Shown here piece by piece: positions 820 through 60,837 of a stretch of DNA of 64,000 nucleotides; positions within the stretch are counted from its first letter, which is position 1; every line of letters starts with the position of its first letter. This stretch comes from Candidatus Multivorans sp. (GTDB lineage Bacteria; Acidobacteriota; Thermoanaerobaculia; Multivoradales; Multivoraceae): the NCBI GenBank assembly GCA_965222875.1, contig CBDCVC010000002.1, positions 1,574,583 to 1,638,582 of the forward strand. The letters run 5' to 3'. A model generated the notes under the pieces. It saw nothing but the letters and a program-made list of their open reading frames with translations. It searched no databases and was not told the origin of the DNA. Made by a program: the position numbers and the translations under genes.

Positions 820-2382
820 CTACGGCATATACGGCGTCGGACCGGGTCCGAGTTGGGTCTCGAGAACCGCCTGGGCGGCGTCGACGAACTCGCAGACCAT
901 CGGTCGGGTCTCGCGGGGATCGATGATCTCTTCGATGTTGAACGCCTCGGCGGTGCGAAACGGCGACGCCAGGGCCTCGAGGCGGTCCTCGATCTCCTTC
1001 TGCTTGGCCGCGGGGTCGTCGGACTCCCGGATGATGCGCCGATAGGCGGCGGTCACGCCGCCGGAGATGTGCATGGACCCCCAGTGGGCGGACGGCCACG
1101 CCACTCGCCTGAACATGCCGCTCGGGCGATCGTGGCACTGGCCGGCGACGCCGTAGAGCTGCCGGATGATGATGGTCAACCACGGCATGCGGGTTCTAAG
1201 CGTCGCGCACAGCATCTTGGCGCCGGCGCGGACGATCCCCTGGCGCTGTTGCTCGGGGCCGACCATGAATCCGGGCTCGTCGCCGAAATAGACCATCGGT
1301 AGGTGGAAGGTGTCGCACAACTGCAGGAAGCGAATCACCTTGGTGCCGGCGGCGACGTTCATCGAGCCGCCGAGATGGGCCGGGTTGTTGATCATCGTGC
1401 CGACGGGATAGCCGTTGACGCGGGCGAGTCCGACGATTCGAGAGCGTCCGTAGAACGGCGTGATCTCGAAGAACGAGTCGCGGTCGAGAACCGCGTCGAG
1501 GATCTCTATCGGGTCGTAGGCCTTGTTCTTCTCGCGTGGGATGGCGGACAGGAGCGACGGCTCACGGCGCCCCGGGTCGTCGTGGGTGTCGCCGCGCGGC
1601 GCCATCTGCCAGACGCTGTCCGGCAGATAGCTCAGGAACCGCTTGAGCTGTGCTGCGGCCTCCTCCTCGGAGTCGACGAGATTGTCGATGACGCCGCTCC
1701 CGTAGACCTGCGTGCGCTCGTCGCCGAGATCTTCCTTCGTGATGTCGATGCCGAGTGCGGCCTTGACGACCGGAGGCCCACCCGGGAACACCTGGCTCGT
1801 GCCCTTGACCATGACGTTGAAGTGGGCGAGGCACGACTCGACCGCCGGCAGTCCGGCCACCGAGCCGAGCACGGCCGCGACGACCGGGACGGTGCAGAGC
1901 AGGTCCTCGACGCCCGGGGTAGCGGCGTTGGTCGGGATGTAGGTGCGTCCGATCTTCTCGAAGGTCTTCACGCTGCCGCCGGTGGAGTCGAGCAGCCGGA
2001 CGTAGGGCAAACGCCAGCCGAGCGCCAGCTTCTGGGCGTGACCGCTCTTGTCGCCGATCGACGCGTCGGAGGCGCCGCCGCGCACGGTGAAGTCGCCGCC
2101 GTTCAGAACCGCGCGGCGGCCGTCCAGGCGGGCGAGCCCGATGACCCTGTTCGAGGGTCGGACGTCCTGGAGTTCGTTGCCGTCGTAGGTGGCCACTCCG
2201 GCAAGCTCACCGATCTCCCGGAACGAGCCCTCGTCGGCGAACAACTCGAGACGCTCCCGGATCGTCAGCTTGCCGCGACGGTGCTGCTCCGCGATGCCGG
2301 CCTCGCCGCCCATCTGTTGGGCGAACTCGCGGCGCCGCTTCAGCTCCTCGATCTCTCGCTCCCAGACCATTGGCGCTGGCAA
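820..2382 (-). CDS. pccB: Acyl-CoA carboxylase carboxyltransferase (beta) subunit, propionyl-CoA carboxylase-like
   Basis: The 520-aa ORF has the typical carboxyltransferase N and C domains, with motifs such as GGxxxxRGGASDASIGDKSGHAQK, AVLGSVAGLPA and VIRFLQLCDTFHLPMVYFGDEPGF. Confidence 0.85.
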   Translation of the reverse strand: MPAPMVWEREIEELKRRREFAQQMGGEAGIAEQHRRGKLTIRERLELFADEGSFREIGELAGVATYDGNELQDVRPSNRVIGLARLDGRRAVLNGGDFTVRGGASDASIGDKSGHAQKLALGWRLPYVRLLDSTGGSVKTFEKIGRTYIPTNAATPGVEDLLCTVPVVAAVLGSVAGLPAVESCLAHFNVMVKGTSQVFPGGPPVVKAALGIDITKEDLGDERTQVYGSGVIDNLVDSEEEAAAQLKRFLSYLPDSVWQMAPRGDTHDDPGRREPSLLSAIPREKNKAYDPIEILDAVLDRDSFFEITPFYGRSRIVGLARVNGYPVGTMINNPAHLGGSMNVAAGTKVIRFLQLCDTFHLPMVYFGDEPGFMVGPEQQRQGIVRAGAKMLCATLRTRMPWLTIIIRQLYGVAGQCHDRPSGMFRRVAWPSAHWGSMHISGGVTAAYRRIIRESDDPAAKQKEIEDRLEALASPFRTAEAFNIEEIIDPRETRPMVCEFVDAAQAVLETQLGPGPTPYMP

Positions 2383-2389
2383 GAGTACC

Positions 2390-2421
2390 CCGGCCGGCTG
2401 CTAGACTGCGCAGCCGGCCGG
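2390..2421. promoter_or_regulatory. Perfect 12-bp-stem inverted repeat (ccggccggctgc-N8-gcagccggccgg) in the divergent pccB/sat intergenic region
   Basis: Read directly from the sequence. It sits between two divergent start codons, so it is not a terminator and is more likely an operator or 5'-UTR structure. Confidence 0.3.
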
Positions 2422-2460
2422 CGCTGCTGGGCCGCACTACGACCACGTCGACGGAGCAGA

Positions 2461-4184
2461 TGATGACCGAGCCGCAGGTGGCGCGGCGCGGCGGATCGCC
2501 GCAGCCGCTGATTGCCGTCCCGGAACGCCTGAACGAACTGCGGGAGGGATCGCGCGAGTGGCCCTCCTGGACGCTGACGCCGCGCCAGACCTGCGACCTG
2601 GAGCTGCTTCTCTGCGGCGGATTCGCGCCGCTCGGCGGGTTCATGAACCGGGCCGCGTTCGACAGCGTCTGCGAGGCGATGCGCCTGCCCTCCGGCGGGC
2701 TGTGGCCGATTCCGATCACCCTCGACATCACGCCGGAAGCGGCCGGCGGATTGGAGGCGGGTTCCCCCCTGGTCCTGCGCGACCCGGAAGGGCAGATGCT
2801 GGCGGTGCTCACGGTGGAGGACGTCTGGGAACACGACCGGAAGAAGGAGGCCGAGCTCGTATACGGCACGCTCGACCAGGCTCATCCCGGCGTCGCCCAT
2901 CTCTACCAGCGGACGAACACCGTGTCCGTGGGCGGGAGGATCGAGGGAGTGCAACTGCCGCGGCACTACGACTTTCCTGGATTGCGGAAGACGCCCGAGC
3001 AGTTGCGGCGTCGCTTCGCGCAACTCGGATGGAAGACGACGGTCGCTTTCCAGACCCGCAACCCCATGCACCGGGCGCACTTCGAGCTGACCCTGAGAGC
3101 GGCCCGGGAGCTGGAAGCGAACCTCCTGATCCACCCGGTCGTGGGCATGACGAAGCCGGGCGACCTGGATCACTACACGCGCGTCCGCTGCTACCGCAAG
3201 GTCCTGAGCCACTATCCGCGCCACACCGCGGAGCTTGCGCTGCTGCCTCTCGCCATGCGCATGGCGGGACCGCGCGAGGCGCTCTGGCATGCGCTGATCC
3301 GCAAGAACTACGGCTGCACCCACCTGATCGTCGGCCGCGACCACGCGGGCCCTGGCGTGGACTCAAGGGGCCGGCCCTTCTACGGCCCGTACGACGCGCA
3401 GGAACTGATGGTCGAGCACGAGGCCGAGCTCGGCGTGAAGATGGTCCCCTTCCGGATGATGGTCTACGTCGAGGACCGTGATTCCTACGAGCCGGTGGAC
3501 GCCGTGCAGGAGGGCGAACGGACGCTGTCGATCTCGGGCAGCGACCTCCGCCGCCGGCTGCGCCGAGGCCTTCCGATCCCGGAGTGGTTCACCTTTCCGG
3601 AAGTGGCCGGCGAGTTGCGCCGTAGCCATCCGGCGCGCAGCAACCAGGGTCTCACGGTGTTCTTCACCGGCCTTTCCGGCGCCGGCAAGTCGACCATCGC
3701 CAATGTTCTTCTGGTCAAGTTCCTTGAAGCCGGCGGCCGTCCCGTGACGCTGCTCGACGGCGACATCGTGCGCACCAACCTGTCCTCCGAACTCGGGTTC
3801 TCCCGGGAGCACCGCAACATCAACATCCGGCGCATCGGGTTTGTCGCCTCCGAGGTCACGAAGAACGGCGGCGTGGCGATCTGCGCTCCGATCGCTCCCT
3901 ACGAGAGCGTCCGCCAGGACGTGCGGGAGATCATCGAGGATGTCGGCGGCTTCATCCTGATCCACGTGGCGACGCCGCTCGACGTGTGCGAGCAGCGCGA
4001 CGTCAAGGGGCTCTACGCCAAGGCCAGGGCGGGACTGATCGACGCTTTCACCGGCATATCGGATCCCTATGAGGCGCCGGAGAACCCGGACCTGATCATC
4101 GACACGACGGATATCACCGCCGAGGAAGCCGCCCAACGGGTCATCCTCCACCTGGAGAAGGAGGGGTTCGTCGGACCCCGCTGA
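2461..4184 (+). CDS. Bifunctional sulfate adenylyltransferase (ATP sulfurylase) / adenylylsulfate (APS) kinase
   Basis: The N-terminal part matches ATP sulfurylase (QTRNPMHRAHFEL, GRDHAGPG). The C-terminal ~180 aa match APS kinase, with a GLSGAGKST P-loop. I prefer the ATG at 2461 (MMTEPQ) as start over the earlier GTG/TTG of the tracked ORF. Confidence 0.85.
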
Positions 4185-8401: not shown

Positions 8402-8641
8402 ATGAGAGCGCTTCCGGTGGCCGAGTTCAAGGCCGGGTTCTCGAAGATCCTCGCCGACGTGCGTCGTGGCGAGCGCATCGGCGTCCTGTACGGGAGATCG
8501 AAGACGCCGGTCGCCATGATCGTTCCGTATGAACCGGCGCTTGCCGGCAAGCGCGAACTCGGATTCCTCGACGGGGAGGTCACGATCGAGTTCACCGATG
8601 ACTTCGAGATGACCGAAGAGGAGTTCCTGGGCGGCGCGTGA
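8402..8641 (+). CDS. Type II antitoxin, Phd/YefM family
   Basis: 79-aa protein directly upstream of the PIN toxin and overlapping it by 4 bp (ATGA). The N-terminal region (AEFKAGFSKILADVRRGERIGV) is typical of Phd/YefM antitoxins. Confidence 0.7.
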   Translation: MRALPVAEFKAGFSKILADVRRGERIGVLYGRSKTPVAMIVPYEPALAGKRELGFLDGEVTIEFTDDFEMTEEEFLGGA

Positions 8642-9039
8642 CGTACCTGCTGGACACCCACGTCCTGCTGTGGGCCATCGGCAGATCGACCAGGCTGTCC
8701 GTTCCCGCTCGCGAGATCGTTGAAGACTCGCGCAATCGAGTACTGGTGAGTACCGTGTCCCTATGGGAGGCGTCGCTGAAGTACGGGTTGGGGAAGCTGA
8801 AGCTCGAGCCGCTGGTTCCGGACGAGATTCCCGACCACTGCCGCCGGCTCGGCTTCGAGATCCTCCCGCTGGAAAGCGGCGACGCGGCGAGCTACCACAT
8901 CCTGCCGCGGGTGGATGCGCATCGTGATCCGTTCGACCGGATGCTCGTTCACCAGTGCATTCGCGGCAATTTGATTCTGGTCAGCCGCGATGGTCGGATG
9001 AGGAGCTATCGATCCCACGGGTTGCGGCAGGTCTGGTAG
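8638..9039 (+). CDS. vapC: PIN-domain ribonuclease toxin VapC
   Basis: 133 aa. MTYLLDTHVLLW… is the first acidic PIN motif. Further conserved D/E residues are present (SLWE, DPFDRMLVHQC). Confidence 0.8.
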   Translation: MTYLLDTHVLLWAIGRSTRLSVPAREIVEDSRNRVLVSTVSLWEASLKYGLGKLKLEPLVPDEIPDHCRRLGFEILPLESGDAASYHILPRVDAHRDPFDRMLVHQCIRGNLILVSRDGRMRSYRSHGLRQVW

Positions 9040-11923: not shown

Positions 11924-13146
11924 TAGTGTCATGTCACACGTCCTCTGCCGTATGAATCGTAGTAGGCTCCTTGCCGTTCGACAACGGCAAGGAGTCTGGC
12001 ATGAAGCGGTATGTGGTGGAGTTGGAGGCGCAGGAGCGCGAGGCGTTGGCGACGATGACGCGCAAGGGTTCGCATCGGTCGCAGAAGGTGATCAACGCCT
12101 TGATTCTGCTCAACTGCGACGAGGGCGAGTTCAACGGGCGTCGGCCGACCGGCGAGACGATCGCCGGGGTCTTGCGGATCAGTGCGCGCAGGGTGGATCG
12201 TGTGAAGAAGCGGTTTGTGGAGGACGGTCTGGAGGCGGCGCTCGGCAGTCGGCAGGGGCGTCGTCCGAAGTACCTGCGCAAGGCGGATGGCGAGTTCGAG
12301 GCGCGGCTGGTCGCGCTGAGTTGCGGCGAGCCGCCCGAAGGGCGTTCGCAGTGGTCTCTGCGTCTGTTGGCGGACCGTGCGGTGGAGCTCGGCTATATCG
12401 ACAGCGTCTCGCACGAGACGGTGCGGCGGGTGCTAAAAAAAACGCTCTCAAACCGTGGCGCCGCGTCGGCTGGGTGATTCCGCCGCAATGCAACGCCGAC
12501 TTCGCGGCGAACATGGAGCGGGTGCTCGACGTCTATCGGCGTCCGCACGACGCGAACTTCCCGGTGGTGTGCATGGACGAGACGCCGCGGCAGTTGATCG
12601 CCGAGACACGGGCGCCCATCCCGCAGGCCCCTGGACGGGAGGTCCGCGAAGACTACGAGTACCGACGCTGCGGCACCTGCAACGTGTTCATGGCGACCGA
12701 ACCGCTGGCCGGGCGGCGTCTGACCAAGGTCACCGAGCGCAGGACCAAGACCGACTGGGCGCGTTTCCTGGAAGACATCGCCGGGCAGTATCCCGACGCC
12801 ACCCGAATCACGCTGGTGATGGACAACCTCAACACCCACCGCCCCGGCGCGCTCTACGAGACCTTCGACCCGGCCCGGGCCAAGGCGCTGTGGGACCGCT
12901 TCGAGTTCGTCTATACCCCCAAGCACGGCAGTTGGCTGAACGTCGCCGAGGTCGAACTCAGCGTGATGATCCGCCAGTGCCTCAACCGCCGCATCGACTC
13001 CATCGACATCCTGCGCACCGAAGTCGGCGCCTGGCAGGACGCCAGAGACCGAATCCAAGCCAAGGTCAACTGGCACTTCACCACCGACGACGCTCGCGTC
13101 AAACTCAAGCGCCTCTATCCGACTTTTGACGAGTGACACGGCACTA
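11924..13146 (+). mobile_element. IS630-family insertion sequence (~1.22 kb) with TA target duplication
   Basis: Imperfect terminal inverted repeats: tagtgtcatgtcacacgtc at the left end versus gacgagtgacacggcacta at the right end, matching at 16 of 19 positions. It is flanked by TA at 11924-25 and 13145-46. It encodes an HTH + DDE transposase with an internal A8 slippery run. Confidence 0.8.
12001..13136 (+). CDS. IS630/Tc1-mariner family transposase, produced by programmed -1 frameshift at the A8 run (12435-12442)
   Basis: OrfA (MKRYVVELEAQ…VRRVLKKTLSNRG*) has an HTH domain. OrfB continues as …KKNALKPWRRVGWVIPP… and carries a DDE domain (VCMDETP…, VMDNLNTH…, EFVYTPKHGSWLNVAE). The LKKNxLKPW junction is the hallmark of IS630 transposases. 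Confidence 0.8.
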
Positions 13147-13188
13147 GCTGTAGCTAGAATCTCGCCGACCCGTTCTAGGAGGAGTGAC

Positions 13189-15297
13189 GTGACGTGCACC
13201 TGTTCCTCGCGTTCGCCTCAGCGACACTCCCTTAGCGTTCGTCTCGCGGCTGCGGTGGGTCTGTTGGTGTTGCTGGGCTCGGCCCGAGCGGACGGCCAGG
13301 GTGTCTGCGAGAGGACAGCGGCTGTACGCGATGAGATCCTGAAGAGTCTGGGAAGCACGGACTGCGGGTCAGTCACCGGGGCGCAACTCGCTGGAATCCA
13401 GAGGCTGCGCCCAAGAGGCGTCACACGTCTTCAGCCGAACGATTTTCGAGACCTGGGGAACCTGCAGGAACTGGACCTGGCTGAGAATGAGCTCACGTCT
13501 CTTCCTCCCGGCATCTTCCGGGGGCTGTCTCAGTTGCACGAGCTCAGATTGTCCTTCAACAAGTTGACGGCTCTTCCATCGGACGTCTTTTCAGGCCTTT
13601 CGCGTTTGAAGCTCCTGCTTCTAGGTGTCAACGACTTGACCGTTCTTCCGGGGCGCGTGTTCGCGGGGCTGTCGAGTCTTGAGGGTCTCTACCTGGACCG
13701 GAACAGCCTCAGTGGTTTGCCTGTCGGTCTATTCTCCGACCTTGGCTCCATGCGGACGCTTGATTTGAGCTCAAATGACCTGCAGAGCATCTCTGCCGGG
13801 CTGTTCGACGAGATGCCTGAGCTCAGGTTCCTTCATTTAAGCGGGAATCGCCTCGAGGAACTTCCGTCGGGGCTCTTGTCGGCCCTTTCGAATCTGGAGT
13901 CTCTGGAGGTTTGGGACAATCGTCTCAGTGCCTTTCCGGAAGACCTTCTGGCGGGAATGGCGCGTGTTGAGCGTCTCTACCTGTCGACAAACCGACTGGG
14001 ACAGCTCCCCGCGGGCGCTTTCGCTCGCCTTCCGAGTCTGAAGTACCTGCGAGTTAGAGACAACGGCCTTGAGGAGCTACCGGCGCGGGTGTTCAGGAAC
14101 TCGTACAAGCTGTTGGAGTTGGACTTGCAAGGGAACGACTTGAGAGTGCTTCCTGAGGGCGTTTTCGATCCGTTGCGGTCCCTGGAGACTCTGAGGTTGC
14201 AGGGAAACCCCGGAGTTGGCTTTCCCGTACCGGTTCGATTCGAGCGGACCCGGCTGAAACCGGATGGGTCGATGGACTTGAAGGTACGGAGGATAGCGGC
14301 GGTCAGAATCACGCTGGAAGTGCAGCTCGAGGCTTCGGGGGGTACCTTGAGTGCGCCGACAGTGACGATCCCCTTCAACAAGAAACGGTCGGAAGTCGTT
14401 ACCTGGAAGCCCAACAGCCCATCGGCATCTGTGGTCGCCGAGCCGGAGTTCGTAACGGGCGCCGATTTCTACGCGGACGGTTGGGAAAATACGGAGGGAA
14501 CGATTCGGTTCGATCAACTCCCGCCGGTGACGATCGGATCGTGCGCCGGGCTCGAAGACGACCTGACGGCCGTCTGTGTTCGAGGCGGACGGTTCCTGTT
14601 CAGGGTCGACTGGCGATCGCAGTACGACGGCAGCGAGGGCTCCGGCACGATGCGGCAGTTGACCGAGGAATCGGCGGTCGCGACCTTCTTTGACGAGGAG
14701 AACGTGGAACTGGTGTTCAAGCTCCTCGACGGCAGGGGACTCAACCGGCACTTCTGGGTCTTCTACGGCGCGCTGTCGGACGTGGAGTACACGCTTTCCG
14801 TGACGGACCGGGAGACGGGCGAGTTCAGGGAGTACCGGAATCCCCCGGGTGAGATCTGCGGGCGCGGCGACACGAAGGCGTTCGCGGCGGGGTCAGGCGC
14901 CGCCTCGCTTTCGGCGTCCGATCTCGCGGACCGGGTCGCCGCCTCTCAGAACGGTGACTGTCCTTCCGGCGCCCTTTGTTTGCAGGACGGTCGCTTCCAG
15001 GTGACGGCGACATGGAGCAATCCGGCCAAGGGCGAGACCGGGGTCGGCACTCCGATCCCGGACACGGACAGCGCGGGCTACATGTGGTTCTTCTCACCGG
15101 GCAACATCGAGCTGGTGCTCAAGGTGCTCGACGGCCGATGGTTCAACGACTCGTGGTGGGTCTACGCCAGTGCGCTGACGGACGTCGACTACACGATCAC
15201 CGTGCTGGATTCGCATACGGGAGCGTCGAGGACGTACACGAACAACCCGGCCCGGCCGTTCTGCGGGTTCGGCGACATCGGCGCGTTTCCTGAGTAG
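13189..15297 (+). CDS. Secreted leucine-rich repeat (LRR) protein with two tandem copies of an uncharacterised ~105-aa C-terminal domain
   Basis: AGGAGG ribosome-binding site at 13178-83 and a GTG start at 13189. Signal peptide (…AAAVGLLVLLGSARA|DGQG). About 12 LRRs of 24 aa each (LxxLxLxxNxLxxLPxGxFxGL). The C-terminal domains are repeated at about 14545-14880 and 14960-15294, sharing the motif FFxxxNxELVxKxLDGRxxNxxxWVFxxALxDVxYTxxVxDxxTGxxxxYxNPxxxxCGxGDxxAF. Confidence 0.7.
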   Translation: MTCTCSSRSPQRHSLSVRLAAAVGLLVLLGSARADGQGVCERTAAVRDEILKSLGSTDCGSVTGAQLAGIQRLRPRGVTRLQPNDFRDLGNLQELDLAENELTSLPPGIFRGLSQLHELRLSFNKLTALPSDVFSGLSRLKLLLLGVNDLTVLPGRVFAGLSSLEGLYLDRNSLSGLPVGLFSDLGSMRTLDLSSNDLQSISAGLFDEMPELRFLHLSGNRLEELPSGLLSALSNLESLEVWDNRLSAFPEDLLAGMARVERLYLSTNRLGQLPAGAFARLPSLKYLRVRDNGLEELPARVFRNSYKLLELDLQGNDLRVLPEGVFDPLRSLETLRLQGNPGVGFPVPVRFERTRLKPDGSMDLKVRRIAAVRITLEVQLEASGGTLSAPTVTIPFNKKRSEVVTWKPNSPSASVVAEPEFVTGADFYADGWENTEGTIRFDQLPPVTIGSCAGLEDDLTAVCVRGGRFLFRVDWRSQYDGSEGSGTMRQLTEESAVATFFDEENVELVFKLLDGRGLNRHFWVFYGALSDVEYTLSVTDRETGEFREYRNPPGEICGRGDTKAFAAGSGAASLSASDLADRVAASQNGDCPSGALCLQDGRFQVTATWSNPAKGETGVGTPIPDTDSAGYMWFFSPGNIELVLKVLDGRWFNDSWWVYASALTDVDYTITVLDSHTGASRTYTNNPARPFCGFGDIGAFPE

Positions 15298-15371
15298 CGG
15301 CGGCGTGAGGACTCTCGACAGCTCATGCGGCCCTGGAGTTGCTGCCGGAGCCGCCCGGGAGCCGTGGCGCG

Positions 15372-15764
15372 TCACGCCACAGGTCGCGAGCGCTCCTCCA
15401 GATAGACGGCCACTTGCGCTTTGCCGACGCTGCCGTCGGCGACGCCGAGAACCAGGTCCGCGATCTCGTCCGGATCCGCCACCACCTCGAGATCGTTCAG
15501 CCACAGGAAGGCGAGACACGTGGCGAGTGCCGTGCGCTTGTTCCCGTCCAGGAACGGATGGTTGTTGCACAGATGGAAGAGGTAGGCGGCGGCCATCTCG
15601 AAGAGGTTCGGATGGAGGAACTGGCCGTCGTACGTCGCGGCGGGCATCGCCAGGGCGGACGCCAGGAGGCCGGTGTCGCGTAGGCCTTCCGTTCCGCCGT
15701 AGCACTCGATCTGCTCTGCCTGGATCGCGAGGACTTCGTCGAGCGTGAGGAATACCGGCTCCAC
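15372..15764 (-). CDS. doc: Doc (death-on-curing) Fic-fold toxin
   Basis: 130 aa with the Doc motif HPFLDGNKRTA (HxFx(D/E)GNKR). Confidence 0.8.
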   Translation of the reverse strand: MEPVFLTLDEVLAIQAEQIECYGGTEGLRDTGLLASALAMPAATYDGQFLHPNLFEMAAAYLFHLCNNHPFLDGNKRTALATCLAFLWLNDLEVVADPDEIADLVLGVADGSVGKAQVAVYLEERSRPVA

Positions 15765-15785
15765 TCGCCCCGAAACGCCTCCGCG

Positions 15786-16087: not shown

Positions 16088-17254
16088 TTACCCAGACGTC
16101 TCCGCGAGCTCGGCTGCCAGATCGATGCCGCCGTTGCGCCAGGCAGCATCGGTGGCCTGGAGTTCGCCGGCGGGGGCGAAGCGGGAGACGCCGGCTTGTT
16201 CGAAGGCGCGGCGGACGGTCGCGGGCGTGTGGCCGGCGACGGCGATGCCTTGGATGCGGCCGTTCCAGTCGTAGAGGGTAGGGAACTCGGAGACGGAGTG
16301 GATGCGGACGGTGCGCAGGCCGGGAGAAGGGCTGATCGTGGCGTCGTTCTCGACGATCACGGTACCGGCGTCGAGTGCGTCGCCGGACCAGGCGAGGCCG
16401 CGGAGATCGGCGTCCTCGCGGGCGAGGCGGACGCCGGCCCGGTCGGCGGCGTTGCTGCGGCCGGGCGGCAGTTCGGTGGCCAGTTCGCCTAAAGCCTCGG
16501 CGAGAGCGTCGGCGAAGGGGTCGGCCGCCGTCCGGTCGACGAGCACGGCCTCGACGGAGAGGCAGCCGCGCTGGTCGAAGAGCGCGATGTCGAGGGCCAT
16601 GCCGCGAGCTGCCCGATTCACGTCGGCATCGGGGCCTACCCAGCCGAGGCTCAGCTTGGGGCCGAAGGTGACGAGCTTCCGGGGGCCTGCGGCCGCGATG
16701 GAGGCGATCGTCGACTCGTTTCCGTAGGCGGCGACGAGCCGGGCGCGAGCGCACAGGGGAGCTTCGATCGAGGCGTCGCCGCCGGTCCACGTGGCGGTGG
16801 CGTAGGCATTGCGCAGGATGGGGCGCCGGCGACCCAGGGCGGCAAGGAATGCCGGTGCGAAGAAGGGTTCGGCTCGCGATGACTTGAACAGGACGGGCGC
16901 CCGCGCCGCCAGGGCCGGCAGCAGGGACTGGAGCATCAGCGCCGGAGGGTTTGCCGGCAGCACGACGAGGCTGAAGCCGTCCTGTTGTTGCTTCGGCGCG
17001 CGGCGAAGCGCCGCGGCCGCGGGCTCGCCGGCCATGCCGGTGCCGATGGTCCGGAGGCCGCGGTCGAGGCCGGCGGGGGAGAGGCGGGTTGCGGCCAGCA
17101 GGTCGGGGTCGAGGGCGCGACGTTCGGGGCTGTTGGCGTTGAGGAAGGCGGCCACGGTGTCGTTCCAGGCGGCGAGGAGGTCGTCGTCGAAGATGGCGCG
17201 AAGGGCCGGCGCGGAGGCGGTGAGGCGCTGGGCTGTGATGTCGGGCGCGTTCAT
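16088..17254 (-). CDS. LuxC-family acyl-CoA reductase
   Basis: 388 aa with aldehyde-dehydrogenase-like fold features and a DQRGCLSVEAVLV catalytic-Cys context typical of the LuxC family (PF05893-like). Confidence 0.55.
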   Translation of the reverse strand: MNAPDITAQRLTASAPALRAIFDDDLLAAWNDTVAAFLNANSPERRALDPDLLAATRLSPAGLDRGLRTIGTGMAGEPAAAALRRAPKQQQDGFSLVVLPANPPALMLQSLLPALAARAPVLFKSSRAEPFFAPAFLAALGRRRPILRNAYATATWTGGDASIEAPLCARARLVAAYGNESTIASIAAAGPRKLVTFGPKLSLGWVGPDADVNRAARGMALDIALFDQRGCLSVEAVLVDRTAADPFADALAEALGELATELPPGRSNAADRAGVRLAREDADLRGLAWSGDALDAGTVIVENDATISPSPGLRTVRIHSVSEFPTLYDWNGRIQGIAVAGHTPATVRRAFEQAGVSRFAPAGELQATDAAWRNGGIDLAAELAETSG

Positions 17255-17359
17255 GCCGGACCGGCGCTATGCGCCGGATGCGGGCCAGAAGGCCCGCGCA
17301 CCCAGAGACAGGGCGTCGTTGTGGCGGGGTTCTCTACGGTTCACGATCGGTTGGCCTCT

Positions 17360-18403
17360 TTACGCCGGCCCCAGCTCTTCCGCTGTCAGGGAACAGCCGC
17401 GGAGTTCGGCGCCGCTGGCGCGGCCGAGCAGGCGGAAGGCGCCGCCTTCGGCGACTCCGAGATCCTCGGTCAGCACGTGACAGACGGAACCGAGGTTCGC
17501 GAGGTCGAAGAAGGACAGCAGGCCGGTGCGGCCGTCTTCGGTTTCCTCCAGCGTCTCCGGGTCGAGCACGCGAAACGGCATCCAGGGCGGTGTGCGCAGG
17601 CGCTCGCCGCCGGGACGCGAGTACGCCTGGCTGGTCAGCTCCGTCATCCCGTACTCGCGGACCACAGCTTCCGGGCCCAGGCCGAGCAGGGTGCGGACGC
17701 GACGCCGGACGTCCTCCGGGGTCGTCTTGAGGCGTTGACCCTTGAAGCCGCCGGTCTCGAAGACGCGGCTTCCGGCCGGCAGCCGGAGTGCGTGTCCGGC
17801 GCCGCTTTCCAGGTGGTCGAGAAGGAGGACGAGAGCGAGGGCGGTGGCGAGAACAAGAATTGGCTCGCCGTCGGTGCGCGCCTGCAGCCAGCGGCGTGCC
17901 TGTCCCACGTCGACCCCGCCTGGCGAGACGGCCCAGACGCTGTCCGGGGCGGCGTGGCGCTCGAAGACGTGGTCCGCCATGAAGGACAAGCTCGAGTCGG
18001 GGGCCGCGGCCCGGTCGGGGATGAGCGAGAGGATCGGCACCCGCGCGCGGTCGCCGGGAAGGCAGGCGCCGCCGAAGGATGCGTCGATCACGGTCCGGTA
18101 GAGGTCCGGGTACGGGTGATGGTGGACGCTCCGCCGCTCCGCACCGCGGGTTGTGCCGCTGCTGCGGAAGACCTCCCGGGGCTCGGCGGCGGCGAGGCGC
18201 AGCGACTTGAAGGCGGAGGTCGGCACCGGCGGCGCCGCCCGCCAGTCGTCCAGTGCGTCGACGGTGAGGCCGCGCCGCTCGCACAGGCGGCGGTAGGGCT
18301 CGACGCGCTCGTAGCCGAAGCGTGCGGCCGCCGGGGCGAGTTCCTCGAAGCTGCCTTCACCGGTGCTGACGAAGCGCTCGATGCGATGGAACAGGGCGTT
18401 CAT
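17360..18403 (-). CDS. LuxE-family acyl-protein synthetase (adenylate-forming)
   Basis: 347 aa. It has a FRSSGTTRG adenylation motif, a conserved REYGMTE motif and a C-terminal catalytic Cys context (…GCSLTAEE…), characteristic of LuxE (PF04443-like). Confidence 0.6.
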   Translation of the reverse strand: MNALFHRIERFVSTGEGSFEELAPAAARFGYERVEPYRRLCERRGLTVDALDDWRAAPPVPTSAFKSLRLAAAEPREVFRSSGTTRGAERRSVHHHPYPDLYRTVIDASFGGACLPGDRARVPILSLIPDRAAAPDSSLSFMADHVFERHAAPDSVWAVSPGGVDVGQARRWLQARTDGEPILVLATALALVLLLDHLESGAGHALRLPAGSRVFETGGFKGQRLKTTPEDVRRRVRTLLGLGPEAVVREYGMTELTSQAYSRPGGERLRTPPWMPFRVLDPETLEETEDGRTGLLSFFDLANLGSVCHVLTEDLGVAEGGAFRLLGRASGAELRGCSLTAEELGPA

Positions 18404-33639: not shown

Positions 33640-33996
33640 ATGATCAGCAAGGTGGCGGAGCGCTACGACATTCATCCGCAGACCCTTCGCCTCTACGAGC
33701 GAGAGGGACTGCTCCAGCCGCAACGAAGCGACGGCAACACGCGGCTCTACGACGAGGACGCCCTCCACCGCCTGGAGTCGATCCTGACGCTGACCCGCGA
33801 CATGGGCGTCAACCTCGCGGGCGTCGAGGTCATTCTGACCCTCCAGGAGCGGCTGGCGCGGCTGGAGGCGGAGCGGGACCGCCTGCTCGAGATCGTGGAG
33901 CGGGACGTGTCGGACCGGCGCCGCGGAGTACGGCGGCGGCACGCACTGGTCTGGGTGCGAAGCGGCGCCCTGGTCAAGGTCGAGGAAGAGGATTGA
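33640..33996 (+). CDS. hspR: MerR-family heat-shock repressor HspR
   Basis: MerR HTH (MISKVAERYDIHPQTLRLYEREGLL) and a coiled-coil tail, immediately downstream of dnaK as in dnaK-hspR operons. Confidence 0.7.
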   Translation: MISKVAERYDIHPQTLRLYEREGLLQPQRSDGNTRLYDEDALHRLESILTLTRDMGVNLAGVEVILTLQERLARLEAERDRLLEIVERDVSDRRRGVRRRHALVWVRSGALVKVEEED

Positions 33997-34742
33997 ACGA
34001 GACGGGTTGCGAGTTCTGCCAGGGGCGTGGCTGGATCGTCGACGTGGTGACGAACCGCGCGCGACGTTGCAGTTGCTACCAGGCGCGGGTTCGCAGCCGC
34101 CGGCTCGACGACCTCGGGATTCCGCCGAAGTACCAGGGCTGCCGGCTCAGCAACTTCCGCCTCGCCGGCGACGCGAACGACCAACTACGGGCTGCGCGCC
34201 GCAGTTGCGAGCTGTACATCGAGGACTTCCTCGAACTCGATGGCTCCCTGCGCGAGACGGGCCTGGTGTTCGTGGGCCCGAGCGGGCGCGGCAAGACGCA
34301 CCTCGCGGTGGCGGTGCTGATCGAACTCGCCGAGCAGTACGGCGTCCGGGGCCGTTTCGTCGACTTCACGAGCCTGGTCGCGGACATTCAGGCCACGTTC
34401 CAGCAAGACGCCGATCTGAGCCAGGCCGATCTGCTGCGACCGTTGCAGGAGGCGGATGTCGTGGTGGTCGACGAGCTCGGCGCGAGGCGGCCGACGCCCT
34501 TCGTCTCGGACACTCTCTACCTGCTGATCAACCGCCGCTACATGGCCAGGCGGCCGACCCTGTTCACCAGCAACTACTACCTGACGTCCGATGGCGACGG
34601 TGAGGACATTCCCACCGGCCAGACGCTCGCCGGCCGCGTTCCGGCAAGCCTGGTCAGCCGTCTCCACCAGATGGCCAAGCCGATCCCCATCGACGCCGTC
34701 GGCGACTACCGGCACGAACTCCAGGCCCATCAGCACCGGTAA
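33993..34742 (+). CDS. DnaC/IstB-like AAA+ ATPase with N-terminal zinc-ribbon (CxxC…CxC)
   Basis: Walker A (FVGPSGRGKTHLAVAV), Walker B (VVVDELG) and an N-terminal CEFCQGRGW…CSCYQ motif. Its start overlaps the hspR stop. Confidence 0.55.
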   Translation: MNETGCEFCQGRGWIVDVVTNRARRCSCYQARVRSRRLDDLGIPPKYQGCRLSNFRLAGDANDQLRAARRSCELYIEDFLELDGSLRETGLVFVGPSGRGKTHLAVAVLIELAEQYGVRGRFVDFTSLVADIQATFQQDADLSQADLLRPLQEADVVVVDELGARRPTPFVSDTLYLLINRRYMARRPTLFTSNYYLTSDGDGEDIPTGQTLAGRVPASLVSRLHQMAKPIPIDAVGDYRHELQAHQHR

Positions 34743-45070: not shown

Positions 45071-47057
45071 CTAGTCCGAAGTTCTGAGGCTCCTGGGGCC
45101 TCCTCGTCGTCGAGAGGCGTTGCAGTGCTTGGGTTTTGGGGTGTTGGGCCGCCCATGTTTTCTGCCATTTGTAGCCATGTAAGAATCTCGTGGCATGTAG
45201 ACATCCTGAATGGTTTCGTCTACAATGAGAAGCCATGTACATCGAACGGGTACCCAACCGAAACTCACCACCCGCCGTCCTGCTGAGAGAGTCCTACCGA
45301 CAGGACGGAAAGGTCAAGAAACGCACTCTCGCCAACCTCTCCAAGTGGCCCGACCAACTCGTCGAAGGACTCAGAACCCTGCTCAAGGGAGGAGTCGCCC
45401 TGCCTTCGCTCGAGGCCGCCTTCGAGATCCTGCGCGCCAGACCGCACGGCCATGTCGCCGCCGTCCTCGGCGCGGCCCGAAGCCTCGGCATCGAACGACT
45501 CCTCGACCGACGGCCCTCGCGCGAACGGGCGCTGGCGCTGGCCATGATCGCGGCCCGCATCCTCGAGCCGCGATCCAAGCTCGCCACCGCCCGCGGACTC
45601 GCAAGCGAGACCATGAGCCACACCCTCGGCGAGGAACTCGGCGTGCAGGAGGCCTCGGCCGACGAACTCTACGGCGCCATGGACTGGCTGCTCGAAAGAC
45701 AGCCGCGCATCGAGCGGACTCTTGCCCGGCGGCATCTGGAAGACGGCTCGCTGGTGCTCTGCGACGTGACCTCGGTCTACTTTGAGGGCAGGAAGTGCAC
45801 GCTGGCCAGGCACGGCTACTCCAGGGACAAGAAGAGAGGCAAGGTCCAGATCGTCTTCGGCCTGCTCTGCAGCCGGGACGGATGCCCGGTCGCGGTCGAG
45901 GTATTCGAGGGCAACACGGCCGATCCGACGACCCTGAACGCCCAGGTGCAGAAGCTCCGCGACCGCTTCTCGCTGGAGAGGATCGTGATGGTCTCAGACC
46001 GGGGCCTGATCACCGACGCGCGCATCCGCGAGGACCTCGACCCCGCGGGCCTGTCCTGGATCAGCGCCCTGCGCGCGCCGGCGATCAGGACGCTGGCCCA
46101 GGAAGGCCACCTGCAACTGTCGCTCTTCGACCAGCGGAAGATGGCCGAGATCAGGGTCCCGGAGCTGTACCCCAAGGAGCGCCTCGTGGTGTGCCGGAAC
46201 CCGCTTCTGGCGGAGGAACGCGGCCGCAAGCGAAAGGAGCTTCTCGAATCCACCGAGCGCAAGCTCGACGCCGTCGTTGCGGCGACGCGGCGCAAGAAGA
46301 ACCTCCTGCGCGGCAAGGACGCCATCGCCGTGCGGGCGGACCGCGCCCGGGGCGCCTACAAGGTCGGCAAGCACTTCGAGGTCGAGATCGAAGAGGACGG
46401 CTTCCAATACCGCCGCAACGAGGCGCGCATCGCCGAGGAAGCCGCTCTCGACGGCTTCTACGTCATCCGCACCAACGTCCCCGAAGACGAACTGCCGGCA
46501 GCCGATGCGGTCCGCGCCTACAAGAGCCTCAGCCGCGTCGAACGCGCCTTCCGCTCCTACAAGAGCGTCGACCTCAAAGTGCGCCCCGTCCACCATCGCC
46601 TGGCCTCGAGGGTGCGCGCCCATGTCTTCCTCTGCATGCTCGCCTACTACGTCGAGTGGCACATGCGCCGGACCCTGGCGCCCCTCCTCTTCGACGACCA
46701 ACGCCGCGACGACCAACGCGAGTCGCCCGTCGATCCCGCGCGCAGGTCGCCCGAGGCAATGGCCAAGGCCAACTCCCGGAGGACCCCCGACGGACTCCCC
46801 GTCCACAGCTTCCAGACCTTGCTCGCCGACCTGGCCACGCTGACCCGAAACCGCGTGCGGATGCACGGCAAGGCCGACTCCACCGCCGACGTCCTCGCAC
46901 GGCCCACTCCACTCCAGAACGAAGCCTTCAAACTACTCGGCATCCGCCCCTGAAGCCGACGTACCCAGTACAAGACACCGCCGAACAACTGAAAACGCCC
47001 ACCACTACAGGCGATTTCACGACTTGAAGCTCAGAACTTCGGTCTAGTGCTGACGCG
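45071..47057 (+). mobile_element. IS1634-family (IS4 superfamily) insertion sequence, ~1.99 kb
   Basis: 19-bp terminal inverted repeats matching at 17 of 19 positions, enclosing a 572-aa IS1634-type DDE transposase. Confidence 0.75.
45235..46953 (+). CDS. IS1634-family DDE transposase
   Basis: The N-terminus MYIERVPNRNSPPAVLLRESYRQDGKVKKRTLANLSKWP is the IS1634 family hallmark. DDE region: LCDVTSVYFEG…MVSDRGL…. Confidence 0.85.
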   Translation: MYIERVPNRNSPPAVLLRESYRQDGKVKKRTLANLSKWPDQLVEGLRTLLKGGVALPSLEAAFEILRARPHGHVAAVLGAARSLGIERLLDRRPSRERALALAMIAARILEPRSKLATARGLASETMSHTLGEELGVQEASADELYGAMDWLLERQPRIERTLARRHLEDGSLVLCDVTSVYFEGRKCTLARHGYSRDKKRGKVQIVFGLLCSRDGCPVAVEVFEGNTADPTTLNAQVQKLRDRFSLERIVMVSDRGLITDARIREDLDPAGLSWISALRAPAIRTLAQEGHLQLSLFDQRKMAEIRVPELYPKERLVVCRNPLLAEERGRKRKELLESTERKLDAVVAATRRKKNLLRGKDAIAVRADRARGAYKVGKHFEVEIEEDGFQYRRNEARIAEEAALDGFYVIRTNVPEDELPAADAVRAYKSLSRVERAFRSYKSVDLKVRPVHHRLASRVRAHVFLCMLAYYVEWHMRRTLAPLLFDDQRRDDQRESPVDPARRSPEAMAKANSRRTPDGLPVHSFQTLLADLATLTRNRVRMHGKADSTADVLARPTPLQNEAFKLLGIRP

Positions 47058-52099: not shown

Positions 52100-54967
<2,868 letters not shown>

Positions 54968-58392: not shown

Positions 58393-59031
58393 TCAACGGC
58401 CCTTCAAGAGATCCAGGAACTCCTCCCGGATCGGCCGTTCGTGGAAGATGCCCCGGAGCGCGGACGTGACCGTCATGGCGCCGGACTTCTCGACGCCGCG
58501 CATCTCGACACAGAGGTGACGGGCCTCGATCACGACCATCGCGCCGGGCGGCCGGAGTTCCTCTTCGAGGAAGCTGACCACCTGCTCGGTGAGCCGCTCC
58601 TGGAGCTGCGGCCGCTTGGCGTAGAACTCGAGAATGCGCGCAAACTTGGACAGCCCCAGGATCTTGTCGCCCGGCACGTAGGCGATGTGCGCGTGGCCGT
58701 AGAAGGGCACCAGGTGATGCGAACACATGGAGTAGAAGGGGATGTCCTTCTCCATGACCATGGCGCGGTAGTTCTCGTCGTTCGGGAAGGTCGTGACGCG
58801 CGGTTGCGACCCTTGGTCGAGACCGCGGAACATCTCCAGGTACATTCTGGCCACCCGCTCGTGGGTGGTGCGCAGATTCGGGTCGTCCAGATCGAGGCCG
58901 AGTTCGACGAGCATGTCCCGAACGCGCTCCGCGAGACGCTTCACCCGCTCGGCGTCCGGGGTCGCCGCCGCAAGCTCCTGCTGCCTCCGCTCGCGTGCCG
59001 CAATCGTCTCGACGGGCTCCAAGACACGCAT
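58393..59031 (-). CDS. folE: GTP cyclohydrolase I FolE
   Basis: 212 aa with the CSHHLVPF, HAHIAYVP and VIEARHLCVEMRGV signatures. Confidence 0.9.
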   Translation of the reverse strand: MRVLEPVETIAARERRQQELAAATPDAERVKRLAERVRDMLVELGLDLDDPNLRTTHERVARMYLEMFRGLDQGSQPRVTTFPNDENYRAMVMEKDIPFYSMCSHHLVPFYGHAHIAYVPGDKILGLSKFARILEFYAKRPQLQERLTEQVVSFLEEELRPPGAMVVIEARHLCVEMRGVEKSGAMTVTSALRGIFHERPIREEFLDLLKGR

Positions 59032-59082
59032 TGGCGCATGCTACCGTAGGCCGCTCCAGACAACTACGGAGCTGAGCTTCAA

Positions 59083-59310
59083 ATGAGCCGAGTCACGATC
59101 GAATACTGCGTGATGTGAAACTACCGCCCCCGAGCCGCCGGTCTGGCGGCTCAGTTGAAGGAGCGGTTCGACCTCGATTCGGAGCTCGTGGACGGCAGCG
59201 GCGGCGTCTTCGAGGTCGCCGTCGACGGCCGGCCCGTGTTCTCGAAGAAGCAGCTTGGCCGCTTCCCCGACAACGGCGAGGTCGAAACCGCGGTCGCGGA
59301 CCTGCTGTAG
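59083..59310 (+). CDS. selW: SelW/Rdx-family selenoprotein (75 aa) with in-frame TGA (Sec) at 59116-59118
   Basis: MSRVTIEYCVM[U]NYRPRAAGLAAQLKERFDLDSELVDGSGGVFEVAVDGRPVFSKKQLGRFPDNGEVETAVADLL*. It has a CxxU redox motif and the Rdx-fold motif GGxFEVxVDG…FSK…GRFP. It is absent from the ORF track because of the TGA. Confidence 0.75.
59132..59152 (+). promoter_or_regulatory. SECIS-like hairpin (gagccgcc-ggtct-ggcggctc) 13 nt downstream of the UGA
   Basis: Perfect 8-bp stem with a GGUCU apical loop at the distance typical of bacterial SECIS elements. Confidence 0.5.
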
Positions 59311-59404
59311 AGCCGCCAACGGCTCTCTTCGTGTCGTTCTGCGGTGCAGCCGACGCCGAAGCGCCAGTCCGAAGACCGGCCGCCGGCCCGCCGGATCCAG
59401 GCCG

Positions 59405-59680
59405 CTAGGCCGATTCGCCGATCGACTCGAAGTCGAGCCGGCCGGCGGGGTCGGCGTCGGCCGGGAAGAGGAAGTCCTTCATGTGGCGGGAGAGGGTCGC
59501 CTGGGCTTCGGGTTCCATGAAGTTCAGGCGCAGTTCGTTGATCACCTTGATCTCCATCGCCATCCATTCGTCCCAGCAGCCGGAGCAGACGCGGGCGGCA
59601 ATGTCCTCGCCGAGGGAACCGGGAAACGGCGGATCGCCCAGGGCTTCGCGTTCCTGGCCGCAGCGTGCGCAGACGATCAT
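59405..59680 (-). CDS. yggX: Fe(II)-trafficking / oxidative-damage protection protein YggX
   Basis: 91 aa. MIVCARCGQEREAL…FPGSLGEDIAARV…EWMAMEIKVINELRLNFMEPEA… matches the YggX family. Confidence 0.8.
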   Translation of the reverse strand: MIVCARCGQEREALGDPPFPGSLGEDIAARVCSGCWDEWMAMEIKVINELRLNFMEPEAQATLSRHMKDFLFPADADPAGRLDFESIGESA

Positions 59681-60837
59681 CGGTCCTCCTCGGACGGTCC
59701 CGACCCGGCGTCCGGGGCCGCGTCCTGTGCGTCCTTGTAGCGCTTCTTGATCCCCGCCTTCTGGCGGTTGCGGACCAGCCAGCGCAGCAGCTTCGATTCG
59801 TTGATGCCGACCACGAGATCGTCGAGCGCCTCGTAGATCGCGGGATCGTTGATCAACTTGGCCGCGGTGCCGTCGCCTTCGGACACCTGCTCAAGCGTGG
59901 AGTTCAGGCGCTTGAGGAGTTGCTCCACCTCGGTTGTCAGCGATTCGCTGAGTTCCTCGTCGTTCAGCAGCCGGGGCAGCAGCCCGTCGGCGTCCCGCAG
60001 GTCCGCGGCGATGGCGCGCAGATCGGCGGCGGCGACCTCCGTGTCGGCCATGGTCGATTCGAACCGGGTCTTCAGTTCGGCGTCGTGGAGCAGCGCCGGC
60101 GCCAGACCGTCACCTTCCCGCAGCAGGGTCAGGGTCTCCTCGATGTGGTCCAGGGACGAAGCGAGCTGGTCGCCCATCTCCTCGTCCGTCAGCAGGCGGC
60201 CGAGCAGTCCGTCGCCTGCCTCGACCTGGTTGGTCAGGCGTTCGACCGATTCCAGGGTACGGATCACCGTGTCGGTGATCCGCTTGTCCTCGCGTTCGGC
60301 GACCAGCTCGCCGAGCAGCCCTTCGCCCCGCTCCATGCGGGCCAGGATGGTCGACAGAGACTGCGCGGTGGAGACCACGTAGTCGACCACGTCGGCGCCA
60401 CTGGCAATCAGGTCGTCGACATCGGTGGGCAGGGCGGCGGGGATCTCTTCGCCCGGGTTGAGGAGCACCGCGCCGGGGGAGCCCGAGGTGATCTCGACGT
60501 ACTTGTCGCCGAGCAGTCCCAGGGTCTTGATCCTGGCCAGGGAGTCGCGGCGCAGCCGATTCGCGTACCGGCGTTCGACGCTGATCCGCACTTCCAGCAA
60601 TTCGCTTTCCGGCCGCTCGCTCAGCAGGATGCGGTCCACCTTTCCGACGGTGACGCCGTTCAACTGGACCGGGTTGTCCTCCGCCAGGCCGGCGGCGGTG
60701 GGGAACATGATGCGGTAGGTGTTGCTGGCACGGAACAGGAAGCTCTGATCGCCGATGGCGAGGATGAAGCCGGCCAGGACGATGAGCGCGCCCAGCACGG
60801 TCAGGCCCACCTTGGCTGTGTTGGAATCACGCTGCAT
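59677..60837 (-). CDS. mlaD: MlaD / MCE-family lipid-transport substrate-binding protein
   Basis: N-terminal transmembrane helix and an MCE domain (LNGVTVGKVDRI…). Long helical C-terminal extension. Confidence 0.8.
   Translation of the reverse strand: MQRDSNTAKVGLTVLGALIVLAGFILAIGDQSFLFRASNTYRIMFPTAAGLAEDNPVQLNGVTVGKVDRILLSERPESELLEVRISVERRYANRLRRDSLARIKTLGLLGDKYVEITSGSPGAVLLNPGEEIPAALPTDVDDLIASGADVVDYVVSTAQSLSTILARMERGEGLLGELVAEREDKRITDTVIRTLESVERLTNQVEAGDGLLGRLLTDEEMGDQLASSLDHIEETLTLLREGDGLAPALLHDAELKTRFESTMADTEVAAADLRAIAADLRDADGLLPRLLNDEELSESLTTEVEQLLKRLNSTLEQVSEGDGTAAKLINDPAIYEALDDLVVGINESKLLRWLVRNRQKAGIKKRYKDAQDAAPDAGSGPSEEDR

Follow-up and report, generated by a model that had tools for sequence, protein, structure and literature searches.

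The question raised by positions 59083 to 59310 of the 64,000-nucleotide stretch of contig CBDCVC010000002.1 analysed here (hereafter the window, meaning the whole of that stretch) is whether a TGA that interrupts a short reading frame between folE and yggX is a stop codon or the selenocysteine (Sec) codon of a gene that annotation has missed. We consider this interval to be a functional Sec-encoding gene of the SelW-like family, a sequence-based reading to which we would assign a probability of roughly 0.92. It is carried by the membership of the product in the Rdx family, the occurrence of either TGA or a Cys codon at one and the same position of the homologues, the conservation and covariation of a hairpin downstream of the TGA, and purifying selection across this codon, all of which are demonstrated in the sequences that have been compared.

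The open reading frame (ORF) comprises 75 codons on the plus strand, from an ATG at 59083 to a TAG stop at 59308-59310, with a single in-frame TGA at 59116-59118. Between the upstream in-frame TAG (59047-59049) and this ATG there is no alternative start codon. When the TGA is read through, the product is MSRVTIEYCVM-U-NYRPRAAGLAAQLKERFDLDSELVDGSGGVFEVAVDGRPVFSKKQLGRFPDNGEVETAVADLL (75 residues), in which the CVMU motif corresponds to codons 9-12 (the codons around the motif being TGC GTG ATG TGA AAC TAC). The coordinates and the translation of this frame, including the TGA and CVMU, are those that an earlier note on this DNA had proposed. That note had also described the interval as being without an ORF, which holds only in part: the full gene is indeed missed by gene callers, but an ORF of 51 aa, callable from a TTG at 59155, appears in the same frame when ORFs are listed mechanically. 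Automatic callers cut the gene to this 51-residue fragment because Sec is encoded by a UGA “stop” codon. The features of the locus are as follows.

59083 to 59310, plus strand: predicted complete SelW-like/Rdx-family selenoprotein gene (ORF, family profile matches, conservation in six syntenic relatives).
59107 to 59118, plus strand: codons TGC GTG ATG TGA of the CxxU redox motif (Cys9-Val-Met-Sec12), conserved in the family.
59116 to 59118, plus strand: predicted UGA selenocysteine codon (TGA in the six syntenic relatives; TGA or TGC/TGT in homologues, in the same column).
59132 to 59152, plus strand: predicted bacterial selenocysteine insertion sequence (SECIS) hairpin inside the coding sequence (fold, model constraints, register-specific conservation, covariation).
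59155 to 59310, plus strand: TTG-initiated 51-aa ORF of the mechanical listing, an annotation artefact covering the C-terminal two thirds of the gene.
59068 to 59071, plus strand: GGAG, 11 nt 5′ of the ATG, which we infer to be a possible Shine-Dalgarno sequence.

Purine-rich GGA(G) tracts are also found directly 5′ of the ATG in relatives, and consensus scans of 58850-59750 revealed neither a sigma-70 promoter nor a terminator.

The assignment of the protein to the SelW/Rdx family, which the earlier note had suggested from sequence motifs, is borne out by profile and structure-sequence comparisons made with U written as C. The Pfam Rdx profile (PF10262) matches residues 3-72 with 71.8 bits (cutoff 22.6), covering positions 1-73 of its 74, so that the match is end to end. 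The NCBIfam equivalog NF041051, “SelT/SelW/SelH family (seleno)protein”, is also exceeded (96.6 bits, cutoff 88), as is TIGR02174 (64.6 bits, cutoff 34.2). Additionally, the sequence matches seven solved structures of the Rdx family (2FA8, 3DEX, 2OJL, 2OKA, 2P0G, 2OBK and 2LJK), the best of them with E = 1.9e-10 over residues 3-75, and from this homology a thioredoxin-like Rdx fold may be predicted for the window protein.

A search of a large protein collection gave 45 relatives. The closest ones (78-94% identity) are all deposited as 51-aa fragments, cut exactly like the window gene, and the cluster records of the closest relatives (51-55 aa) carry names such as “Rdx family protein [Acidobacteria bacterium]” and “SelT/SelW/SelH family protein [Holophagales bacterium]”, Holophagales being within Acidobacteriota. 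Synteny and identities of 84-94% over the 51-aa fragment make an acidobacterial lineage the probable source of the window. In longer relatives, the position of U is occupied by Cys (in CVVC, CVIC and the like) or by W/G. At the level of DNA, the homologues have either TGA or a Cys codon at exactly the position for which the earlier note had claimed Sec: TGC or TGT in P0007, P0010-12, P0015-17 and L007-L014, and TGA in L001-L006 and L015-L020. Cys9 is invariant in a 16-sequence family alignment, and the motif IEYCxx[U/C]NY is invariant both there and in the 121 unique loci described below.

At the Sec position, several full-length SelW-like database proteins show Trp or, in P0023, Gly (CVQW, CVVW, CVVG; entries P0005, P0009, P0019, P0021 and P0023-P0027). 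Every W entry whose DNA was examined (loci L015-L020) has TGA at the Sec codon, the DNA check covering W entries. The W entries examined come from contigs that have been translated with the wrong genetic code.

The TGA is directly followed by a hairpin. A perfect 8-bp stem begins 13 nt after the UGA (59119-59131 lying between them), with its 5′ arm GAGCCGCC at 59132-59139, an apical GGUCU loop at 59140-59144 and its 3′ arm GGCGGCUC at 59145-59152, and the structure overlaps the codons Arg-Ala-Ala-Gly-Leu-Ala-Ala-Gln. Folded alone, 59132-59152 reaches -16.1 kcal/mol (z = -4.24), and none of 200 shuffles folds as well. According to the published consensus of bacterial SECIS elements (the model of Zhang and Gladyshev, summarised in PMC13188914), a loop of 3-9 nt stands on an upper stem of 4-16 bp, at least one of the first two bases of the loop is a G, which G or U usually follows, the distance from UGA to loop is 16-37 nt, and the minimum free energy (MFE) is at or below -7.5 kcal/mol. 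The window hairpin lies within all four constraints, having a 5-nt loop on 8 Watson-Crick pairs, the loop GGUCU, a spacing of 21 nt (59119-59139) and the energy given above. Others describe SECIS hairpins as having a stem of 6-8 bp and, some 20 nt past the UGA, a conserved G in the loop (PMC4605307); the loop Gs of the window are 22-23 nt after it. The fold, position and form that the earlier note had attributed to this hairpin are confirmed, its interpretation as a SECIS element in agreement with the published model is supported, and SelB would be its putative ligand. No Rfam family reached its gathering threshold in the window, and 59000-59400 gave only sub-threshold chance matches.

Some of the pairs join third-codon positions with each other. 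In the window gene, such wobble-wobble contacts are cgA59133-gcU59151, gcC59136-gcG59148 and gcC59139-cuG59145, and rare codons are found at structural wobble sites (CGA, GGT and GCT represent 6.9%, 10.4% and 6.3%, respectively, of the codons for their amino acids in the window). As an estimate of chance, 9 of the 1343 TGA triplets of the window (0.67%; the window is 67.6% GC) precede an equally good, compliant hairpin, two of these nine cases being the same 59132-59152 hairpin; a hairpin of this kind is therefore, by itself, uncommon but not unique. Other TGA triplets with perfect, GC-rich hairpins of 8-12 bp within 16-37 nt are located at 4636, 10652, 11953, 18471 and 40261/40266 on the plus strand and at 54905 on the minus strand. 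Some of these sites are at the ends of called ORFs (e.g., 4636 and 11953), where the hairpins may be terminators that follow real stop codons.

The comparison across the family is more informative than the window alone. Metagenome contigs were scanned with the pattern ATHGARTAYTGYNNNNNNTGHAAYTAY, in which the Sec/Cys codon may be TGA, TGC or TGT, and at least 120 stretches were returned. Together with the loci collected earlier, the metagenome matches listed gave a comparative set of 121 unique Rdx genes, of which 116 have TGA and five have Cys. An earlier scan of genome contigs had relied on the back-translation of IEYCVx[CW][NT]Y, to which no TGA can correspond, and had returned eight Cys-type loci (L007-L014); all five Cys forms of the set derive from this genome scan, and none from the metagenome sample. 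Among about 110 unique metagenome genes (the matches listed, L021-L140), obtained with a pattern open to TGA, TGC and TGT alike, there is not a single Cys form. In the IEYCxx[U/C]NY subfamily, the Sec form is the overwhelming environmental norm.

When positions are counted from the U of UGA (position 0), several bases of the hairpin are nearly fixed in the TGA forms: C23 in 110 of 116 genes, G25 in 113, U26 in 107, U28 in 106 and G29 in 111. Positions 23, 26 and 29 are third-codon positions, and their bases C23, U26 and G29 are 92-96% fixed. The Gly codon of the loop is GGU in 38 of 39 cases, while GGU represents 18% of Gly codons elsewhere in the same genes. In the register of the window, the 116 TGA genes form 6.20 of the 8 pairs, compared with 4.86 ± 0.08 when the synonymous codons of each gene are shuffled among themselves, and the contiguous stem counted from the loop is 5.41 pairs long, against 1.63 ± 0.21 (maximum 2.10 in 300 shuffles). 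By contrast, the five Cys-type homologues have no contiguous pairs at this register.

The stem also covaries. In an ungapped alignment of 45 columns (A4) there are 124 doubly changed cells, compared with 42.5 ± 5.1 after shuffling, and none of 500 shuffles reaches 124. The covariation score of the helix is 0.406, against 0.166 ± 0.011 in shuffled alignments and at most 0.136 in registers slid by 1-3 columns. The signal is carried by the inner seven pairs, the outermost one (59132-59152) being particular to the clade of the window. The MFE of the whole segment, set against synonymous shuffles, discriminates only weakly (median z: -0.87 in TGA forms, +0.50 in Cys forms), and register-specific counts were used in its place. 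The SECIS character claimed in the earlier note is supported at the level of the family: the hairpin is found in register and with covariation in the TGA-type genes and is absent from the five Cys forms.

Some members of the family are physically linked to the Sec machinery. In 18 of the 116 unique TGA-type genes, a tRNA-Sec gene is situated -8 to +186 nt after the Rdx stop, on the same strand, and is followed by selD, selA and selB where the flank is long enough. The sel-linked Rdx cluster loci, mostly of 52-59% GC, are the following.

L101, 79 to 5010, minus strand: sel-linked Rdx cluster, whose selD reads SCAG-UGA-ASK and is of the Sec type.
L030, 4572 to 9510, plus strand: sel-linked Rdx cluster.
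L100, L028, L034 and L134: sel-linked Rdx clusters.
Twelve shorter loci: sel-linked Rdx clusters.

The arrangement is a compact cluster, Rdx(U) - tRNA-Sec - SelD(U) - SelA - SelB, of which Rdx is the first gene. An analogous case, in which a selenoprotein gene clusters with selA, selB and selC, is already known from fdhA (PMC1794560); a limited literature search found no description of sel linkage for SelW-like genes.

If the window gene is decoded in the manner of standard bacterial Sec recoding, the UGA at 59116-59118 would enter the ribosomal A site, and SelB with Sec-tRNA(Sec), decoding factors that are presumed here, would bind the hairpin inside the ORF and insert Sec12. The hairpin is written into the R-A-A-G-L-A-A-Q codons by means of specific, partly rare, synonymous codons. 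In the protein, Cys9-x-x-Sec12 would constitute a redox centre on a thioredoxin-like scaffold, presumably cycling through a selenenylsulfide. The product is most likely a small thiol/selenol oxidoreductase with a reversible selenenylsulfide, its redox activity and its substrate being putative.

A number of observations weigh against the Sec-encoding reading. The structure signal of the window by itself is only moderate (z = -1.68 for the 66-nt segment and z = -1.39 for the window gene against synonymous shuffles), and strength comes from the comparative data, whose control set of Cys forms is small (n = 5). Moreover, the copies found beside sel genes share 36-56% identity with the window protein and form a subfamily other than its own. 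The 64-kb window has no selA, selB or selD (according to Pfam searches of 40 ORFs and tblastn probes) and no tRNA gene of any kind, hence no tRNA-Sec, which is what the earlier note had stated for selA, selB, selC and selD. A SelA probe of protein records, in a word-indexed search, returned only enterobacterial SelA. In any case, the sel genes are not expected to be linked to the selenoprotein gene in the lineage of the window. The Sec trait is present in some Acidobacteria (PMC1794560), and this, together with the selection on TGA and SECIS, indicates that the organism very probably decodes Sec, the linkage of other family members to sel clusters lending indirect support.

A different possibility is that the UGA is translated as something other than Sec, namely as Ser or Cys at position 12, through an allo-tRNA suppressor or through a SelB-like factor of the selC*/selB* type with an opal-decoding tRNA-Cys. 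In fact, non-canonical tRNAs that are possible nonsense suppressors have been described in Acidobacteria, and selC* tRNA-Cys systems mimic tRNA-Sec in other phyla (PMC5389517). However, the selC* genes in that study are those of anaerobic Firmicutes, Thermodesulfobacteria, Nitrospirae and Proteobacteria, with no acidobacterial one among them (PMC5389517), the hairpin fits the canonical SelB-type SECIS model, and members of the family are linked to canonical tRNA-Sec, selD, selA and selB. Additionally, a general opal suppressor would be costly, because TGA is the main stop codon in the window. We consider read-through with another amino acid to be very unlikely.

The gene could also be a decaying Cys-type Rdx gene in which TGC or TGT has mutated to TGA, with a hairpin that is only a by-product of Ala/Gly-rich and GC-rich coding. 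The peptide AAGLAA (GCN GCN GGN CUN GCN GCN) is in fact intrinsically prone to self-complementarity, synonymous shuffles of the TGA-type genes still pair at more than half of the positions (the 4.86 of 8 given above), and the z-scores of the window alone are modest. Nevertheless, six syntenic relatives (L001-L006), with folE adjacent in each, have all kept the ATG, the frame, the CxxU motif (CVMU, but CAAU in L006), the TGA and the hairpin, and the stop codon is likewise conserved. Among these sequences and the window, the 5′ intergenic region and many third-codon positions differ. Over the ORF (TGA excluded), the pairwise ratio of nonsynonymous to synonymous substitution rates (dN/dS) is 0.10-0.41, and 0.10-0.19 between the window and each relative, with dS values of up to 0.67. 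Third positions vary in 5 of the 11 codons upstream of the TGA, in 2 of the 13 codons of the SECIS zone and in 27 of the 50 codons in the rest of the gene. There is, then, purifying selection on both sides of the TGA, and it contradicts the nonsense-mutated pseudogene that the earlier note had named as the outcome that would undo its proposal. Furthermore, the 116 unique sampled members that define the TGA class were obtained with a pattern equally open to TGC and TGT, and in them the wobble bases are nearly invariant and the stem covaries. A decaying gene is, on this evidence, extremely improbable.

It might be argued, instead, that only the 51-aa ORF is real, the upstream 72 nt being a leader and the hairpin a regulatory structure in the 5′ untranslated region (5′-UTR). 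GenBank and JGI records, as well as gene callers, give 51-55 aa for all close relatives, and the fragment passes the Pfam cutoff on its own, with 36.5 bits. However, it covers only positions 34-73 of the Rdx profile and, consequently, is without three elements that every full-length or solved homologue has: the first strand, the redox motif (CxxU/CxxC) and the first helix. The upstream 33 codons show synonymous changes and conservation of the frame, and they raise the family-specific score by 35 bits. The TTG, moreover, is an internal Leu codon in Cys-type homologues. That the gene begins at the TTG is thus scarcely credible.

A genome-wide reassignment of TGA (code 4 or 25, TGA being Trp or Gly), as assumed for the “CVxW” and “CVVG” entries and apparently echoed by the several database homologues stored with W or G at the Sec position, has a negligible probability, since most well-supported ORFs of the window end in a genuine TGA stop (28 of 45, the others ending in TAG, 12, or TAA, 5), a window-wide scan for ORF pairs joined by a single TGA gave no other convincing case, and the W/G entries come from assorted short metagenome contigs. 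The frame at 15189-15785 on the minus strand was discarded as a second selenoprotein candidate, since it encodes a Fic/Doc protein whose TGA is a real stop and whose extension looks non-coding.

As for its surroundings, the selenoprotein gene is divergent from a 212-aa ORF (58393-59031, minus strand) and convergent with a 91-aa ORF (59405-59680, minus strand). The syntenic orthologues of the former match PF01227 (GTP cyclohydrolase I) and those of the latter PF04362 (Iron_traffic/YggX), so that folE and yggX are rightly named as the flanking genes in the earlier note. The divergent pairing with folE is retained where the other flank has been rearranged (PTPS is 3′ of the gene in L003 and L006, and yggX in the window, L001 and L002), and it represents the sole hint that the context offers. 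An AhpC/redoxin-like gene is found about 3.5 kb from the selenoprotein gene.

Directly upstream of the start codon of folE (on the minus strand) there is a 17-nt block, GGCGCATGCTACCGTAG, at 59033-59049 (plus strand), which is the same in all of L002-L006 and almost the same in L001, whereas the remaining folE-Rdx intergenic sequence diverges. It holds the near-palindrome CTACCGTAG, which reads TAnnnT on both strands, and the sole other match of the block in the window has 3 mismatches. A promoter or operator shared by the two divergent genes is one possibility for this block, and a leaderless folE mRNA another.

Elsewhere in the window, a fused ATP-sulfurylase/APS-kinase gene with a PUA-like N-terminal domain is located at 2370-4184 (plus strand); ATP sulfurylases are able to activate selenate as well. 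Mobile-element and toxin-like genes are interspersed among housekeeping genes (8402-9039 on the plus strand, 13126-15764, 11971-12477, 33993-34742 and 45235-46953), including a PIN-domain protein and its small partner upstream, a leucine-rich-repeat protein of 723 aa beside a Fic/Doc protein, an HTH_32 transposase-like ORF, an IstB-like ATPase and a DDE transposase. At 16088-18403 (minus strand), a LuxC-like acyl-CoA reductase adjoins a LuxE-like acyl-protein synthetase, a pair of the fatty-aldehyde-forming kind, and no other lux genes were seen nearby.

The main value of the Sec-encoding reading lies in the correction of annotation. The gene and its close relatives are stored as fragments of 51-55 aa or with Trp or Gly in place of Sec and, as a consequence, the redox centre is missing from the public record. 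The rule that emerges for the whole family (IEYCxx-UGA-NY, then a stem that C23-G29 closes around an N-G-U-N-U loop, set in wobble positions) could serve as a simple and specific detector of SelW-like genes of this type. The gene also marks its lineage, apparently Acidobacteriota, as very probably Sec-decoding, and further TGA-interrupted selenoprotein genes are worth seeking in the genome.

A more speculative proposal concerns function. Because about one sixth of the sampled TGA-type members head an Rdx(U)-tRNA-Sec-SelD(U)-SelA-SelB cluster, SelW-like proteins might be a working part of selenium utilisation and not generic redox proteins, for instance by handling reduced selenium or delivering it to SelD, or by reporting the capacity for Sec decoding. 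We regard this as rather unlikely. A reading already familiar from fdhA (PMC1794560) is that these Rdx genes may be passenger selenoproteins that travel with the sel genes. Were the role in selenium utilisation nonetheless true, the window copy, divergent from folE, would be the stand-alone version of that function in its organism, and a testable handle would be available on the long-unknown function of SelW.

It remains to compare the gene with known systems. SelW-like proteins with CxxU are an established family of prokaryotic selenoproteins, among the first described, and the commonest of the selenoprotein families in the Sargasso Sea and Global Ocean Sampling (GOS) sets (48 genes; 427 Sec against 56 Cys forms in GOS) (PMC1088965, PMC2398784, PMC1794560). 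The window gene shares with them a full-length domain, an N-terminal CxxU, a size of about 70-80 aa and an in-frame UGA followed by what would be a SECIS element inside the ORF, and the excess of Sec over Cys forms reported in GOS is paralleled by 116 against 0 in the metagenome matches listed here. There is no essential difference: the window copy is divergent from folE instead of being beside sel genes, and its closest relatives, labelled as metagenome-assembled genomes (MAGs) of Acidobacteria/Holophagales, are deposited only as truncated fragments. It was already known that SelW-like genes are missed or truncated by annotation (PMC4607533).

The solved Cys-type bacterial Rdx proteins (Atu0228, 2FA8; SAV_2001, 3DEX; 2OJL, 2OKA, 2P0G and 2OBK) match residues 3-75 with E values from 1.9e-10 to 1.4e-06 and have in common with the window protein the IxYCxxC motif and the GGxFE/FSK core. 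By contrast, they are about 103-108 aa long, with CxxC and without SECIS, whereas the window protein is shorter and predicted to be of the Sec type. The eukaryotic Rdx proteins (SelW, SelT, SelH, Rdx12 and MIEN1/C17orf37, 2LJK) belong to the same fold family and have CxxU/CxxC at the same position (E = 1.9e-07 for MIEN1). Their SECIS elements, however, are in the 3′-UTR, have another architecture and operate with SBP2 and eEFSec (PMC13188914), while the signal predicted in the window is inside the ORF, directly after the UGA.

With the canonical bacterial SECIS, the window hairpin shares its location directly 3′ of the UGA, an upper stem of 8 bp and a 5-nt loop starting with GGU, and differs from it in that the upper stem is without a bulged U. 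The SECIS loop of E. coli fdhF also reads GGUC(U), and its G-U is contacted by SelB; the window loop is one codon further from the UGA than that of fdhF. As SelW-like selenoproteins and bacterial SECIS elements inside the ORF have been known for about twenty years, the gene brings no conceptual change. All the testable features of membership are present, and the gene represents a new, mis-annotated addition to the known SelW-like family and not a new kind of gene.

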